Assembly (NCBI GenBank): GCA_035357435.1 | Contig: DAOPNM010000016.1 | Span: 1 to 11,950 of the forward strand | Reading direction: 5' to 3' | Length of the DNA: 11,950 bases | DNA from: an archaeon | Lineage (GTDB): Archaea > Iainarchaeota > Iainarchaeia > Iainarchaeales > CSSED10-239 | Shown here: one piece after another, positions 3,399 to 10,747 of the stretch | Layout: each line of letters opens with the position of its first letter | Position numbering within the stretch: the stretch's first letter is position 1 | Notes under the pieces: generated by a model | What the model was told of the DNA's origin: nothing | Seen by the model: only the letters and a program-made list of their open reading frames with translations | Databases searched by the model: none | Position numbers and translations under genes: made by a program

Positions 3399-3812
3399 AT
3401 GTTATACAAAGATGTTTTAAATAATCAAAATAAAATAAATAAATTAGATCGAAACTGTGAAACCTTACATGTAACAAAACCATTTTCTAAGAAAACCTTT
3501 GTAAATATTTTTGCACATTGTAAGCATTTAAAGACAATAACTCTTTCTTTATCTACAAAGGAAAGATTAAGTAAACCTGTAAAAGACTATCTTAAATCTA
3601 AGCATGTTCTTTTGCAAGTAAAAAAAACACAAGGTAGACCTATAGGTGTTCCTTTAGTTAAATTAGAAAAAATATTGTCTATGTATAAAGATTATTCTTA
3701 TAGAGAGTTATCTGAGAAGTTAGGTGTTCCAAAAAGTACAATCCATTATATTATAAAAAAGGCAAAAAAGCAAAAAATAAAAGATGACAATAAAATAGTT
3801 TATTTAAAATAA
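3399..3812 (+). CDS. Small helix-turn-helix DNA-binding protein (resolvase/HTH_7-like C-terminal HTH; N-terminal domain not identified)
   Basis: 137-aa ORF with an ATG start. The C-terminal segment GRPIGVPLVKLEKILSMYKDYSYRELSEKLGVPKSTIHYIIKK has the GRP...(helix)...S-x-R-E-(I/L)-x-x-x-(L/F)-G-V-x-x-S-T-(I/V)-x-x pattern of resolvase-type HTH domains. There is no recombinase catalytic domain. Confidence 0.6.
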   Translation: MLYKDVLNNQNKINKLDRNCETLHVTKPFSKKTFVNIFAHCKHLKTITLSLSTKERLSKPVKDYLKSKHVLLQVKKTQGRPIGVPLVKLEKILSMYKDYSYRELSEKLGVPKSTIHYIIKKAKKQKIKDDNKIVYLK

Positions 3813-4195: not shown

Positions 4196-4443
4196 AAATT
4201 CACCTCATATATTTTTTTTATTAGTTCTAATAGATTTATATAATTATTAATACATGCTTTATATGCAATAATATCTTTTGCATATATTTTTATTGTTAAT
4301 GTTTTTTTATTTTTGTCAATTGTTATTTTTGAATCAGATCTATTATATTCTTTTCTTTTCATTTCAATTTCTAGAAGTTTTTTTAGTTTTTCTGGATTTT
4401 GTGTCATTATTTTAATTTCTGAACTAATTATGTTTTGTATCAT
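4192..4443 (-). CDS. pcc1: KEOPS complex subunit Pcc1-like protein
   Basis: 83 aa. RSDSKITIDKNKKTLTIKIYAKDIIAYKACINNYINLLELIKKIYEV aligns by eye with Pyrococcus Pcc1 (RSEIDFKLEGKKIILDIKATDSSALRGTVNSYLRWIKAALDVIEV). It sits at the expected position between Brix and pfdB. It overlaps the Brix gene by 20 nt. An alternative ATG at 4407 would truncate the first beta-strand. Confidence 0.75.
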   Translation of the reverse strand: MIQNIISSEIKIMTQNPEKLKKLLEIEMKRKEYNRSDSKITIDKNKKTLTIKIYAKDIIAYKACINNYINLLELIKKIYEVNL

Positions 4444-4918
4444 TTTTTATCTCATTTATTTGTTTAATTTTTATTTTTGTCCCTAAATATGTTTCATTTT
4501 TTCTAAATTCATAAACATTTGTTTCTTGTGTAGGAAATAGCCCGTATTTTGCAGTTTCAGAAATATATTTTTTATTTAAATAATAAAATATTTCTTTTGG
4601 CACATTTATTTTTTCTTTTTTTAAATTTTCTATTTTTGAAAATGGTATAAAGTGTCTTAAATCAATTATTTCCCAAATTTGTTCTTTTTCTGGATAATAT
4701 TGTTTTTCTTTTAGTTTGTATATTTTTAAAGATATATCTTTTTGTTTATTTGAACATATTAATATATATTTATTTCCTAAATATTGTGAATTATCATAAA
4801 TTTTAGAAATTTTTGTATTCCCTCTAGGAATATATGTTGTTTCTGGAATAAATTTAGAAAAATATCTAGCAAATCGTTTTGTTCTTTGATTTGCATGTTT
4901 TGAACAAACAATTTCCAT
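4424..4918 (-). CDS. Brix-domain (Imp4/Mil-like) ribosome-biogenesis protein
   Basis: 164 aa. The N-terminal CSKHANQRTKRFARYFSKFIPETTYIPRGN matches the archaeal Brix signature (TTSRxPSxRxRxFxKxLxxxIPxxxxxxRG). Conserved superoperon position after rpoP. Confidence 0.75.
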   Translation of the reverse strand: MEIVCSKHANQRTKRFARYFSKFIPETTYIPRGNTKISKIYDNSQYLGNKYILICSNKQKDISLKIYKLKEKQYYPEKEQIWEIIDLRHFIPFSKIENLKKEKINVPKEIFYYLNKKYISETAKYGLFPTQETNVYEFRKNETYLGTKIKIKQINEIKNDTKHN

Positions 4919-4924
4919 TTTTAA

Positions 4925-5053
4925 TCAATTGGCTTTAATTGTCTTTTTAATTGGCTCTCTTTTTTTATAAAATATTCTAGACCCACAATGTTTGCATTTT
5001 CCATTTTCAGGATATGTTTCATATTCTGCTTTACATCTTCCACAATAGTACAT
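4925..5053 (-). CDS. rpoP: DNA-directed RNA polymerase subunit P (Rpo12/RpoP, RPABC4 homologue)
   Basis: Absent from the ORF track because it is only 42 aa. Hand translation gives MYYCGRCKAEYETYPENGKCKHCGSRIFYKKREPIKKTIKAN, followed by TGA at 4925-4927. It has a CxxC...CxxC zinc ribbon followed by (I/L)xYKxR. Its ATG lies 2 nt after the eL43 stop, and its stop lies 6 nt before the Brix ATG. This is the canonical position in the superoperon. Confidence 0.85.
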   Translation of the reverse strand: MYYCGRCKAEYETYPENGKCKHCGSRIFYKKREPIKKTIKAN

Positions 5054-5307: not shown

Positions 5308-6111
5308 TCACATTTTTATATATTTTAAAATTTCTTTTTTTATCTCACCATATTTTTTTAATGCAATATCTGTCATTTCTAAAATTTCTTTTTGTGTAAA
5401 TGTTCCGCTTTTACTTTTTTGGCAAGAAACAATTTTATCTTCACAAATACCTATTGAGAATCTTGTTGTTCCTGCATCTTCTTCTTTATCTGTTGGGTCC
5501 AAAACTATTTTGTTTTCTATTTTTTCAAAAGTAAATGATAGTGGAATTTTTTTTATATTTAGTTTTTTGTCACTATATTCTCCTTTTATAATTTTATTGT
5601 TTTCATCTATTTTTGGTATTTTGGCATCAAGTAATGCACAAATACTTGCTATTTCTGTTGCATCAATTATATTTCCTGCAGCATTTATTGCATAGCAGTC
5701 AATAAATATTAATAATACTTTTTCTCCAGGAATTATACAAAGATCTTTGAAATCAATAATTTCTGCAGATCTAATTACTCTATCTGCAATTCTTCCATAT
5801 TCCATTGCTTCCAATGTTGGTGGCCCTGTGAAATATTCTGGTGATGCAATTCCTGTTAGTTCAATATTTAAGGTCATGCTTCCTTGATCAGGAGAGTCTG
5901 GATATGGTTCTCCTATTTCAAATTTAATTCCACATACGACTTCTGTATCTCCTATCTTTACAATTGCAGAACCATCTGCCCAATTTAATCCACCTTTTTT
6001 TATTTCTATTTTTCTAAATTCATCTAGCTTTCTTTTATCTAATCTTTGCCCACCCGCTTTTATTGCATTTTTAACTTCTTCAGCATATAATGTGTTTATT
6101 ATTTCATTCAT
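5308..6111 (-). CDS. rrp42: Exosome complex component Rrp42 (RNase PH-like, non-catalytic ring subunit)
   Basis: 267 aa, collinear with Sulfolobus Rrp42 (RxDxRxxDExRxIxI...ADGSAxVKxGxTxV...GPP...IDxxxLxIxPGxxVxxxxIDxYxxxxxGNxxDA). 8-nt overlap (ATGAATGA) with rrp41, with GGTGA embedded in the rrp41 3' end. Confidence 0.88.
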   Translation of the reverse strand: MNEIINTLYAEEVKNAIKAGGQRLDKRKLDEFRKIEIKKGGLNWADGSAIVKIGDTEVVCGIKFEIGEPYPDSPDQGSMTLNIELTGIASPEYFTGPPTLEAMEYGRIADRVIRSAEIIDFKDLCIIPGEKVLLIFIDCYAINAAGNIIDATEIASICALLDAKIPKIDENNKIIKGEYSDKKLNIKKIPLSFTFEKIENKIVLDPTDKEEDAGTTRFSIGICEDKIVSCQKSKSGTFTQKEILEMTDIALKKYGEIKKEILKYIKM

Positions 6112-7436: not shown

Positions 7437-8129
7437 TTATTCTTGAATGTTTATTATTGCATTTCCATGTGTTATGTTATTTATTTCATTAATTAATTGT
7501 TGTCTCATCCCAGATGGAATTTTTATTTTTGCAATTAAATTTCCATTTTTGTCCCATTTCTGTTCTGTAATTTCATATTTATAAAGTATGCCATTTGCTT
7601 TGCCTGCATGGATTGCAGGGATTTCTATTTCTAATGTGATTTTTTCTAAAGATAATGGCATTACTCTTTTTAATTTTTCTATAATTTCTTCAATTTCTTT
7701 TTCTTTTGGTGTATTAATATTTACTTTTATTTTTAATTCTTCAAAGGCATTTATTATTCTTTGTAATGGTATTGGTGTTTTTGTTTTTGGGTCATGTGCA
7801 TTTCTTGCAATAAAATCCATAATTTCTTTTTCTCTTTTTTCTGTAAGTTCATGTCTTTGTGCCGTTGTTAATTGTACTTCTCCTTCTTTAATTATTTGTT
7901 TTGCAATCGTTTGAAAATCTTCTGTGTTAAATACTTCTTTAAGGATTGTTTTGGGTGTTTCATTTCCTTTTAATGCATCACTATAGACCACGTCATATCC
8001 AATCATGTCATCAAAATTTACATTTTGTCCATGTTTGTAATCCCATGCAAGATATGGATCTATATATATTTCAAAAGTATGTCCATTTTTTTTTAATCTT
8101 GCTAAAACACAATTATCTAATTTTGCCAT
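7437..8129 (-). CDS. sdo1: SBDS/Sdo1-family ribosome maturation protein
   Basis: 230 aa. The N-terminal FYSH-domain pattern VLARLKKNGHTFEIYIDPYLAWDYKHG...DVVYSDALKG and the overall length match archaeal SBDS. AAGGA SD 7 nt upstream of the ATG. Confidence 0.9.
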   Translation of the reverse strand: MAKLDNCVLARLKKNGHTFEIYIDPYLAWDYKHGQNVNFDDMIGYDVVYSDALKGNETPKTILKEVFNTEDFQTIAKQIIKEGEVQLTTAQRHELTEKREKEIMDFIARNAHDPKTKTPIPLQRIINAFEELKIKVNINTPKEKEIEEIIEKLKRVMPLSLEKITLEIEIPAIHAGKANGILYKYEITEQKWDKNGNLIAKIKIPSGMRQQLINEINNITHGNAIINIQE

Positions 8130-8138
8130 ATTTTTTCC

Positions 8139-8582
8139 TTATTTTTTTTCTTTTTCAATTTGTTCTTTCCATATTTGTTGTAAGCTATTAAGTTTTTGTA
8201 TTAAATATTTTACCTTTTCTTCATTTGGTAATTTTTCAAGTTCTGTCAAATACCAGGTAACTGTAAAATTATACGCATCCATATTTTTTATTCTTTCTTC
8301 TGGTTTTTTTGTTAATTTCATAAGTTGTCGAAATGCTTCATTCATTTTTCTATATGCATCATACATTTCTGTACTTGTTTTTCCTTGTACTTTATAATTA
8401 GAAAGTTTTTTTGTAAGCTCCATGTGTTTTCTTTTATATTCATTAAATACTTCTTTTTCTCTTTTTTCTACTGTTTTGTTATAACGAGGTTCAATTCTAG
8501 TTATTTTTTTTAATTCTTCACCTTTTTTTACTGGTTTTATTTCTTTTATTTTTCTTAAATATTTTGGCATTTTCCATAACAT
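8139..8582 (-). CDS. Hypothetical protein, strongly basic and Lys-rich, predicted all-helical, no recognisable domain
   Basis: 147-aa ORF co-directional with the operon, 9 nt upstream of sdo1 and 12 nt downstream of the preceding ORF. Its composition and codon pattern match neighbouring real genes (A-rich sense strand). No Cys and a single His. Basic N-terminal tail MLWKMPKYLRKIKEIKPVKKGEELKK. The start is uncertain (ATG 8582 or ATG 8570). Confidence 0.6.
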   Translation of the reverse strand: MLWKMPKYLRKIKEIKPVKKGEELKKITRIEPRYNKTVEKREKEVFNEYKRKHMELTKKLSNYKVQGKTSTEMYDAYRKMNEAFRQLMKLTKKPEERIKNMDAYNFTVTWYLTELEKLPNEEKVKYLIQKLNSLQQIWKEQIEKEKK

Positions 8583-8594
8583 CCTTTTGTTTTT

Positions 8595-8954
8595 TTAAGG
8601 CATTACACCTTTTCTCATTTTTTCTCTTAATGTTATTAGTTTGTCTAATTGTTTTTGCATTGTTGTTATTAAATATGTTTCTTGTGCTTTCCCTTTTTTT
8701 GTTTTGATCCCTCTTTCAATAGTTATTAAATATTTTTTGTTTGATTCTAGGAATGGTTCTAATTTTTTTTTATTGTATATTTCATACATATTATTTATTC
8801 CATTGGTGATATCGTAGATTCTATCATATAATGCAATTAGTTCATTATTTGTTTTTTTAGGAATGTCTTTTTTAGAATTTAGCCATTCTCTAATAGAAAT
8901 GTCTAGTTCTTGAATTTTTATGTTTAATCTTTCAACATTTGATATATTTCCCAT
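8595..8954 (-). CDS. Hypothetical protein, Lys/Asn/Ile-rich, predicted helical, no recognisable domain
   Basis: 119 aa from the ATG at 8954. The ORF-track start at 8957 is a TTG one codon upstream. A GGAG SD (8962-8965) lies 7 nt upstream of the ATG and directly follows the psmA stop (TAAAGGAGACGATTGATG). No Cys or His. The hydrophobic spacing looks heptad-like. Confidence 0.65.
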   Translation of the reverse strand: MGNISNVERLNIKIQELDISIREWLNSKKDIPKKTNNELIALYDRIYDITNGINNMYEIYNKKKLEPFLESNKKYLITIERGIKTKKGKAQETYLITTMQKQLDKLITLREKMRKGVMP

Positions 8955-8966
8955 CAATCGTCTCCT

Positions 8967-9692
8967 TTATATATATTTAACAAGTTTTTCTTTTGGGACA
9001 ATTGGATTTTTTTCTCCTTCTGTAATATTTAGTACTTCTATATAATTAGGATTAAGTTTTTGTTTTGCTTCTAAATTTAATGATAATGTTTTTATGCCTA
9101 ATTTTAAAGCATCTTCAAAATTCATGTTTTCTTTATAATTTTTTTCTAAATACCCCATTAATTTAGGTCTATTTTGTCCAATTGCAAGTGCTTTATATGC
9201 TGTTGTTGCACCACTTGGCTCAATTTCAAAAATATGTTTTCCTAATGGGTCTATCCCTGCAATCATAAGTGACACCCCAAATGGTCTTGCCCCTCCAAAT
9301 TGTGTATAATATTGAACAATCCCTGCTAGTTTTTCTACAAGTGGTTCTATTTCTATAGGATCATCATAATAGTTTCTATTTTGTTGTGCAATTGTTCTTG
9401 CAAAATCAACCAATCTTCTACCGTCCCCTATTAAGCCAGAACATGCAACCCATATGTGTTGATCAATTTTATATGTTTTTTCTACAGTTTCTGGGATTAT
9501 TAATGGTGAAAATATTTTTTTATCTGCAAATATAATTATTCCTTCTTTGTAGATAATTCCTACTGCTGGACTTCCTTTTTCTATTATTTTACTTGCATAA
9601 TCAACTTGGTATAACCTTCCTTCTGGACTAAATACCGTAATTGATCTATCATATGCTTGTGCTGCAGCATTTGCGTTTGTTGTTGGAAACAT
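8967..9692 (-). CDS. psmA: Proteasome (20S) alpha subunit
   Basis: YDRSITVFSPEGRLYQVDYA is the alpha-subunit signature, and the rest is collinear with Thermoplasma PsmA. The ORF-track start at 9701 is the GTG inside the SD of AAAGGTGAAAAAAATG. The ATG at 9692 is preferred (241 aa). Confidence 0.95.
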   Translation of the reverse strand: MFPTTNANAAAQAYDRSITVFSPEGRLYQVDYASKIIEKGSPAVGIIYKEGIIIFADKKIFSPLIIPETVEKTYKIDQHIWVACSGLIGDGRRLVDFARTIAQQNRNYYDDPIEIEPLVEKLAGIVQYYTQFGGARPFGVSLMIAGIDPLGKHIFEIEPSGATTAYKALAIGQNRPKLMGYLEKNYKENMNFEDALKLGIKTLSLNLEAKQKLNPNYIEVLNITEGEKNPIVPKEKLVKYI

Positions 9693-9798
9693 TTTTTTCA
9701 CCTTTTTATATAGTATATATTATATATGCCATTAATTATAAAAAGATATGCTAATTTATTTGTTTTTTTGCATATATTTTTTATATTTGCATAATTTG
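9693..9798 (-). promoter_or_regulatory. Internal promoter and 5' UTR for psmA and downstream genes; the only sizeable non-coding gap in the 8-kb gene string
   Basis: On the minus strand, the TATA-like CTTTTTATAA (9745 to 9736) lies about 45 nt upstream of the ATG at 9692. A GGTGA SD is at 9699-9703. A direct repeat TTTGCATA occurs at 9767-9774 and 9786-9793 (+ strand coordinates, 19-nt period). Confidence 0.45.
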
Positions 9799-10141: not shown

Positions 10142-10747
10142 TCATTTTTCTATAATTGTTTTATTTAAAAATCTATTTATTATATTTTCATCTAATTTAA
10201 AATTTAATAAAAAATATGAAACGATTTTCATATCAATTAACTCATTTGTGTTTTTTGCATCACTTATAAATATCATATCCACTTTGTTTTTTTTTAAAAG
10301 TTTTATAATAAAATTCCATTGTTTTATGGCAACATATGGATTTTCTAATAATTCATTTATACTAAACACAATTTTTTTTCCATTAATTTTTGCTAATTTT
10401 GCACATCCTTCATCAAATATTGGTTGTTTCCCTATTGGGTTGTATATAAAATCAATGTTTTTATTGTTTACAAGTTTTAAAATATCGTTTGGTGTGTTCC
10501 CCTGTGCCATTATTATATTGTTTTTTATTTTATTAATTTGTTCTAAATCTTCAAAAAGATATATTGGTTTACAGTTAATGTTTTTGAGTTTTGGTACGTC
10601 TATTTGTTTTTCCAAGTCTTTTTTATTTTTTATTTTTTTTATTATATATACATTTTTGATATTTAGTTGGTTTAGCATATCATTTAATTGTGAATTGTCA
10701 TTAGTTTGTTCAATTATTGTTTCATCAATAAAATCAAAATATTCCAT
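10142..10747 (-). CDS. rnp3: RNase P protein component 3 (Rpp30 homologue, TIM-barrel/PHP-like)
   Basis: 201 aa. The N-terminal YFDF start, the NIDFIYNP...FDEGCAKLAKINGKKIVFSINELL block and the later VDMIFISDAKNTNEL block (SSgA-type motif) fit Rpp30. Gene order (Rpp30-Pop5-psmA) supports the call. The sequence is divergent. Confidence 0.7.
   Translation of the reverse strand: MEYFDFIDETIIEQTNDNSQLNDMLNQLNIKNVYIIKKIKNKKDLEKQIDVPKLKNINCKPIYLFEDLEQINKIKNNIIMAQGNTPNDILKLVNNKNIDFIYNPIGKQPIFDEGCAKLAKINGKKIVFSINELLENPYVAIKQWNFIIKLLKKNKVDMIFISDAKNTNELIDMKIVSYFLLNFKLDENIINRFLNKTIIEK

Follow-up and report, generated by a model that had tools for sequence, protein, structure and literature searches.

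Two small genes of no detectable family in a conserved, fast-evolving slot between psmA and SBDS of an archaeal exosome-proteasome superoperon

We analysed a stretch of 11,950 nucleotides (nt), hereafter the window, from a Diapherotrites/Iainarchaeia (DPANN) archaeon (contig DAOPNM010000016.1, assembly GCA_035357435.1). Its GC content is 25.7%, and its minus strand carries a near-complete archaeal exosome-proteasome superoperon, which is among the most conserved gene strings in archaea. The genes follow one another in the order arginyl-tRNA synthetase (ArgRS, 3' part), Rpp30-like open reading frame (ORF), Pop5, psmA, ORF A, ORF B, SBDS, Rrp4, Rrp41, Rrp42, L37ae, RpoP zinc ribbon (42 amino acids, aa), Brix-like ORF, Pcc1 and prefoldin beta, and this string is unbroken save for two added cistrons, ORF A and ORF B, which are the subject of the present study. 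The canonical superoperon, reportedly defined by Koonin, Wolf and Aravind in 2001, with the mth685 region of Methanothermobacter as an example, shares with the window the order Rpp30-Pop5-psmA-...-SBDS-Rrp4-Rrp41-Rrp42-L37ae-RpoP-Brix-like-(Pcc1)-prefoldin beta, but in it psmA is followed directly by SBDS, whereas in the window the two added cistrons lie between them. SBDS has been described previously as a member of the superoperon (PMC2695463). The features at the psmA-SBDS junction are listed below.

8967-9701, minus strand: psmA (proteasome alpha subunit; Pfam Proteasome, E 1.5e-50), first gene of the proposed transcription unit containing ORF A and ORF B
8595-8957, minus strand: ORF A, psmA-proximal, 119 aa from ATG 8954 (120 aa from TTG 8957)
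8583-8594, minus strand: spacer between ORF A and ORF B, 12 nt (AAAAACAAAAGG), following the TAA stop of ORF A (8595-8597)
8139-8582, minus strand: ORF B, SBDS-proximal, 147 aa from the first ATG, 143 aa from ATG 8570 (the probable true start)
7437-8129, minus strand: SBDS/Sdo1 homologue (Pfam SBDS_N, SBDS_domain_II and SBDS_C), directly 3' of ORF B

The gaps at this junction are short, with 9 nt between psmA and ORF A, 12 nt between ORF A and ORF B and 9 nt between ORF B and SBDS (a span of 9-24 nt for the neighbour gaps of the pair if ORF B starts at ATG 8570), and an AT-rich intergenic stretch of 97 nt lies upstream of psmA. We propose that one transcript, starting at psmA, covers ORF A, ORF B, SBDS, rrp4, rrp41 and rrp42. 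The original prediction, made from the sequence of the window, had placed two ORFs at this junction, on the same strand and 9-12 nt from their neighbours, and the ORF list, the sequence itself and the Pfam matches of the flanking genes agree with it. The gene string recurs in the Candidatus Diapherotrites metagenome-assembled genome (MAG) GCA_035451105.1 and in metagenome contigs, over 20 in number, that are >99.4% identical to the window.

Both ORF A and ORF B are genuine protein-coding genes. Scored with a codon model derived from the rest of the operon, as log-likelihood per codon in all six frames, ORF A reached +0.35 and ORF B +0.42 in the annotated frame, and the remaining five frames were negative; the same frame-specific pattern was obtained for SBDS, psmA, Pop5, the Rpp30-like ORF and the Brix-like ORF. 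Hydrophobic residues recur at 100-103 degrees above the level of shuffled sequences (z 2.5-3.0 for ORF A and 3.8-4.1 for ORF B), and the same test found no beta periodicity in either protein. A scan of the whole window against Rfam returned no RNA family. Both proteins are strongly basic, with isoelectric points (pI) of 9.7 (ORF A) and 9.8 (ORF B), and end in ...KGVMP and ...EKEKK, respectively. Neither contains Cys, and His is absent from ORF A and occurs once in ORF B, as had been noted (no Cys, at most one His).

The predicted Shine-Dalgarno (SD) site before ORF A, GGAG, is present ('AAAGGAGACGATTGATG'). For ORF B, an AAGGA SD-like element occupies positions 8582-8586, spanning the ORF A-ORF B spacer and the first base of the upstream ORF B ATG. 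ORF A and ORF B are in a common reading frame, separated by TAA and 12 nt. Two population variants bear on the start of ORF B: one, ATG>AGG at 8581, removes the upstream ATG and creates a GGAGG SD 9 nt before 8570, and the other changes codon 2 into TAA. Because these variants abolish the first ATG or place a stop at codon 2, the true start is most likely ATG 8570, giving a protein of 143 aa, the form also adopted in public gene calls. Of the lengths originally given, 119 aa for ORF A thus stands, and 147 aa for ORF B should probably be replaced by 143 aa. Single-nucleotide polymorphisms (SNPs) within the 143-aa ORF B comprised four synonymous and no non-synonymous changes, a count that is small and biased, the loci having been retrieved by identical protein sequence; in ORF A one non-synonymous SNP was recorded. 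The loci behind these counts are the >99.4% identical ones, and the counts are too small and biased for an estimate of the ratio of non-synonymous to synonymous substitution rates (dN/dS) in the window genes.

ORF A and ORF B are without detectable family. Scans against Pfam and NCBIfam gave only noise, and searches of both proteins against 5.8 billion proteins recovered only self-matches; an exhaustive phmmer (HMMER) scan of ORF B over 1.84 billion cluster representatives found only ORF B itself. Sequence searches of the Protein Data Bank (PDB) with either protein gave nothing below E 0.08. ORF A weakly resembled ribosomal protein eL32 (9h3g_AV), but not significantly (E 0.93). Apart from that, neither ORF matched ribosomal proteins, RNase P or prefoldin in Pfam and NCBIfam (E up to 1-10), or PDB chains of ribosomes and RNase P. 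Several candidates were considered and rejected. A weak similarity of ORF A to the HEPN domain (Csx1/Csm6 C-terminal region; PADLOC, E 0.009) was discarded, as the catalytic Rx4-6H motif of that helical bundle is impossible in a protein lacking His. The match of ORF A to PHROG 35454 (function unknown; E 5e-4) was taken as compositional, as tblastn against 50,697 phage genomes yielded nothing at E up to 1. Matches to tape-measure proteins, ATP synthase d, enterotoxin and VIT were insignificant and to coiled or helical segments, and paralogy of ORF A and ORF B to each other was dismissed as well (BLASTP E 0.17 over a non-collinear stretch; no detectable relation). Across Pfam, NCBIfam, PADLOC, PHROGs, PDB and the large protein searches nothing significant was found, so the earlier statement that the two proteins match no family holds, and with no homology to a characterised family their novelty stands. 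A literature search found no paper on genes at the psmA-SBDS junction.

To place the pair in a comparative context, loci of relatives were fetched with the window SBDS as probe from GTDB genomes and JGI metagenomes; their SBDS proteins are 52-63% identical to that of the window, and the sample includes Candidatus Iainarchaeum, 'ainarchaeum', Forterrea multitransposorum and further contigs. All sampled relatives have one or two tightly spaced ORFs of 121-162 aa that separate psmA from SBDS and share their strand (loci L011-L014, L016-L023, L026, L028, L030 and L031). The junction was empty, with psmA abutting SBDS, in two contigs (L024 and L025) of a distant archaeon whose SBDS is 37% identical, and the pair is thus an addition to the canonical order, as had been claimed. 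The psmA-SBDS junction is therefore a positionally conserved gene slot across the sampled Iainarchaeum/Forterrea-type relatives and not a one-off insertion. This positional conservation, together with the fast evolution of the slot described below, is what is new here.

Proteins encoded in the slot of the relatives form a family. The two Forterrea junction copies are paralogues, and the L016 protein and those of the L018 group join by BLAST with E-values of 1e-5 to 7e-3 (in a database consisting of the small set of junction proteins). A search of 5.8 billion proteins with the family profile recovered only 11 clusters (P0003-P0013), all unnamed and without Pfam domains, for example 'hypothetical protein PHX47_02800, Candidatus ainarchaeum sp.', and every cluster looked up maps to the psmA-SBDS junction. 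The lineage restriction proposed for the pair is supported, and the family was found only at this junction. Its conserved motifs are an N-terminal PALKKNP and a C-terminal INRKEGKEVLEIL. In the alignment of the psmA-proximal copies (copy-1), K-K-Y near the C-terminus is invariant in all five sequences, and the Tyr is penultimate in four of them (L013, L014, L022 and L026, ending ...KKY[I/M]), L012 ending in ...KYIN. All 20 junction proteins, family and window pair together, are basic (pI 9.7-10.3, net charge +9 to +20).

Sequence turnover in the slot is rapid. In closely related pairs of relatives, dN/dS of the junction genes was 0.30-0.62, as compared with 0.02-0.11 for psmA and SBDS and 0.08-0.22 for Pop5, Rrp4 and Rpp30, and their dN was 10-30 times that of the neighbours. 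The proportion of non-synonymous differences (pN) was lower than that of synonymous ones (pS) at p<0.05 in six of seven junction-gene pairs. With dN/dS of 0.30-0.62 and pN < pS, the relatives' junction genes are real and under weak purifying selection. Two of the checks set out with the original prediction, for disrupted frames at the junction of relatives and for relaxed selection, turned up intact ORFs and, for the relatives' genes, dN/dS below 1. In certain pairs the divergence is extreme: the junction proteins of L018 and L031 are 31% identical and those of L017 and L018 23%, against 92% and 84%, respectively, for SBDS, a discrepancy that might stem from very rapid divergence or from ancient paralogues having been retained differentially.

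The AlphaFold2 model of ORF B alone (mean predicted local distance difference test score, pLDDT, 79; predicted template-modelling score, pTM, 0.67) has a disordered, Lys-rich tail at residues 1-30 followed by helices at 33-57, 67-86, 90-112 and 117-142. Both the very basic N-terminal tail originally read from the second ORF and the helical character ascribed to the two proteins are in line with this model and, for the latter, with the 100-103 degree periodicity in both ORFs; ORF A would be helical on the evidence of periodicity. The model of the junction family (pLDDT 80, pTM 0.75) comprises a basic N-terminal region with two short helices and then helices at 42-67, 73-93, 98-112 and 117-132, and the final loop falls at residues 113-116 in both this model and that of ORF B. 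Foldseek found no structural neighbour of the ORF B model in PDB and BFVD (best E about 0.5-0.6) or of the family model in PDB (best E 0.48). Across the two models the best E-values, 0.48-0.64, were to designed or FAT-type bundles, none being below 0.4, with query-normalised TM scores of at most 0.45.

Is the window pair homologous to this family? Like the genes of the family, the window pair is flanked by psmA and SBDS, shares their strand and would be transcribed with them; it also resembles the family in its tight spacing, its copy number of one or two, its size range (about 120-160 aa) and its strong basic charge (pI about 10). For ORF B the likeness extends to the predicted helix layout, in which four main helices with almost the same boundaries come after a basic N-terminal region. 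The window SBDS is 52-63% identical to those of all relatives and the window psmA is an outgroup to theirs (73-76% identity, versus 78-95% among the relatives), and therefore a full loss of similarity between the junction proteins is expected from divergence at this distance. We judge divergent orthology to be likelier than independent insertion, and the pair is most likely the family counterpart diverged beyond recognition, with ORF B as the SBDS-proximal copy. Taken separately, ORF B is probably a homologue of the junction family; for ORF A homology is possible, at somewhat less than even odds.

The best overall explanation, to which we assign a probability of about 0.5, is that ORF A and ORF B are a real gene pair in a conserved, fast-evolving slot and encode a lineage-specific, non-enzymatic accessory or adaptor for a machine encoded on the same transcript. 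As modelled, ORF B would fold into a compact bundle of helices preceded by a flexible, Lys-rich N-terminal tail, and ORF A is basic with helical periodicity; bundle and tail together would bind RNA or ribonucleoprotein (RNP), or else an acidic protein surface. We consider this binding mode because a helical bundle, a Lys-rich N-terminus and a positive charge are kept through rapid sequence turnover. The lack of Cys/His clusters, of motifs and of a known fold suggests that the window pair is non-enzymatic. Since a shared transcript would run from psmA into SBDS and the exosome core, an accessory or adaptor of one such machine is the most economical hypothesis: the pair would act stoichiometrically, possibly as an A-B heterodimer, in SBDS-dependent large-subunit maturation or with the exosome, alternatively with the 20S proteasome. 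That the proteins bind nucleic acid or RNP, or are connected with the exosome, SBDS or the proteasome at all, is tentative, and we would sooner doubt than accept either. The overall interpretation originally offered accordingly divides into two parts, the genuine, family-less genes, which stand, and the putative partnership with exosome, SBDS or proteasome, which is read from gene position.

A number of observations weigh against this explanation. Neither window ORF shows significant sequence similarity to the family profile: the hidden Markov model (HMM) of the whole family scores ORF A and ORF B no better than shuffled sequences, hhalign comparisons of the window ORFs with the family gave E 0.11-0.8, and the motifs PALKKNP and INRKEGKEVLEIL are not recognisable in the window proteins. 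Of the sub-family HMMs compared with the window ORFs, a single one gave a nominally significant result: that of the SBDS-proximal copies (copy-2) matches ORF B with 6.3 bits, collinearly (HMM positions 8-100 to residues 5-96), a score reached by 3 of 1000 shuffles. We do not count it as evidence because 143-aa stretches of unrelated natural sequence from the window's own genome do as well or better, up to 7.7 bits. The orphan status of ORF A comes from a word-indexed search, the exhaustive scan having covered ORF B. The constraint on the relatives' genes is weak (dN/dS 0.3-0.6). Helical bundles and basic pI are common in a Lys-rich proteome with 26% GC, and values of pI >9.5 are also seen in Pop5, the Brix-like protein and Pcc1. 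Finally, the superoperon mixes unrelated machines, and gene position is a weak guide to a partner.

Several of these points could also be read as favouring a different origin, in which the window pair consists of unrelated orphans, perhaps arisen de novo or acquired horizontally, that were inserted independently at a permissive, highly expressed inter-cistronic site and hitch-hike there on a strong constitutive transcript, with no functional link to the proteasome, SBDS or exosome machinery. Such an origin fits the lack of detectable similarity of the pair to the family that occupies this site in the relatives, the lack of any homologue of ORF B among 1.84 billion representatives, the mutual dissimilarity of ORF A and ORF B where the Forterrea pair is clearly paralogous, and dN/dS values of up to 0.62 in the relatives. 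However, divergence at the rates measured is a more parsimonious account than two insertions that agree in junction, strand, size, charge, copy number and helix layout, the slot is filled in all sampled relatives, and purifying selection on the relatives' genes is significant; we therefore think independent orphans unlikely, though they retain appreciable weight. If the genes were mere hitch-hikers, the finding would be a minor curiosity. Denying them coding status altogether, as chance spacer ORFs or as one gene read through the in-frame TAA, is scarcely credible. The window has many chance ORFs of 50-180 aa in antisense orientation, and the common frame of ORF A and ORF B with TAA and 12 nt between them might suggest read-through, but a shared frame is expected by chance in one case out of three, codon usage in both ORFs is as frame-specific as in bona fide neighbours, helical periodicity is present in both, an SD site precedes each, the region contains no Rfam RNA, and in the relatives the ORFs, of 121-162 aa, are separate and have dN/dS values under 1.

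Two further readings accept the genes and name a specific partner. In one, pair and family are a proteasome factor, an assembly chaperone or alpha-ring gate regulator translated right after PsmA and thus meeting nascent alpha subunits. The position directly downstream of psmA, the first cistron of the unit, speaks for it, and the conserved C-terminal ...KKY[I/M] of the copy-1 paralogues loosely recalls HbYX, the C-terminal motif by which proteasome activators dock into the alpha-ring pockets; but neither window ORF ends in a Tyr-X motif, the family residue preceding the Tyr is Lys and not hydrophobic, no similarity to PAC/Pba, Ump1 or PI31 was detected in Pfam, nor to PDB folds, and the strong positive charge fits RNA binding better. 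A precedent does exist in Pbp11 (Q9UZY3) of Thermococcales, a lineage-restricted orphan of ~11 kDa which binds tRNA as well as PAN-20S and with which ribosomal and exosome proteins are pulled down, its N-terminal region being required for RNA binding (PMC9540759). It is a precedent at the level of concept, as a small, family-less and lineage-specific protein touching both proteasome and translation apparatus: Pbp11 is an OB-fold beta-barrel, whereas ORF B and the family are predicted to be helical, and there is no relation in sequence or structure. On balance we regard a proteasome factor as improbable. The other reading, that family and window pair are the archaeal counterpart of the Rrp6-PMC2NT/Rrp47 module, is more remote still. 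Rrp6 PMC2NT and Rrp47 (C1D) are two small helical proteins that form an intertwined heterodimer and serve as non-catalytic cofactors of the eukaryotic nuclear exosome. Besides this general likeness, the adjacent exosome genes and the pairing of the genes in some lineages, the lead came from a family profile (A3), whose best PDB match was the Rrp6 N-terminal domain (4wfc_A; collinear over 90 residues, E 0.064). This E-value is not significant and the match was not reproducible, disappearing with the cleaner copy-2 profile A4 (top match ferritin, E 0.07); no family member matches Pfam PMC2NT (PF08066) or Sas10/C1D (PF04000) even at E up to 10, 4wfc and 4wfd are not among the top 50 Foldseek matches of the family model, and the window ORFs give no such match in Pfam, PDB sequences or Foldseek. 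Having failed every follow-up, the lead is largely refuted, and the two systems should not be treated as related.

The slot deserves attention for several reasons. To our knowledge, archaeal cofactors have been described in very few cases for the exosome, SBDS or the 20S proteasome, and a slot that one DPANN lineage always fills offers a concrete, testable candidate for an accessory subunit peculiar to that lineage. Size, charge and helical layout are retained by its proteins, while the sequence changes 10-30 times faster than in neighbouring genes; the slot thereby exemplifies how orphan genes may be positional orthologues diverged past recognition, which is relevant to the annotation of hypothetical genes in DPANN. 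A bolder idea, which we think rather a long shot, is that Iainarchaeia-type DPANN archaea evolved an unrecognised small basic helical subunit, sometimes as a paralogue heterodimer, that physically couples the superoperon machines. Such a subunit might tether RNA or pre-50S particles to SBDS or to the exosome cap, or link the 20S proteasome to the translation apparatus, and its evolution would be rapid enough to leave orthologues unrecognisable even inside one class. If this were true, it would be an archaeal analogue, though not a homologue, of fast-evolving eukaryotic cofactors of the exosome and of ribosome biogenesis such as Mpp6 and Rrp47.

Other genes in the window also gave some observations. 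The ORFs in the positions of Rpp30 (10142-10747, minus strand, 201 aa) and Brix/Imp4-like protein (4424-4918, minus strand, 164 aa) have no Pfam matches and were assigned by position; both appear strongly diverged, paralleling the junction genes. Between L37ae and the Brix-like gene, an RpoP/Rpb12-like zinc ribbon of 42 aa (CxxC...CxxC; 4925-5053, minus strand) was identified, with a weak match to Zn_ribbon_RPAB4 in L001; it is shorter than the 50-aa threshold of the ORF listing. The Rrp42 gene (window position 5833) carries a TAT>TAA change in the ENA assembly L010 (3633-4436), where it is called as two ORFs of 92 and 168 aa; the stop interrupts a core exosome subunit and reflects either a pseudogene at strain level or a mistake in the assembly. 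On the plus strand, a homologue of the RuBisCO large subunit (264-1580; RuBisCO_large_N and RuBisCO_large by Pfam in the identical gene of L001 and L002) adjoins a Na+/H+ exchanger with a TrkA_N domain and is presumably of form III, the nucleotide-salvage type known from DPANN archaea. Directly after prefoldin beta and in divergent orientation, a protein of 137 aa (3399-3812, plus strand) combines an N-terminal DUF1699 domain with a C-terminal helix-turn-helix (Sigma70_r4/HTH_SB-like) and may be a local regulator.

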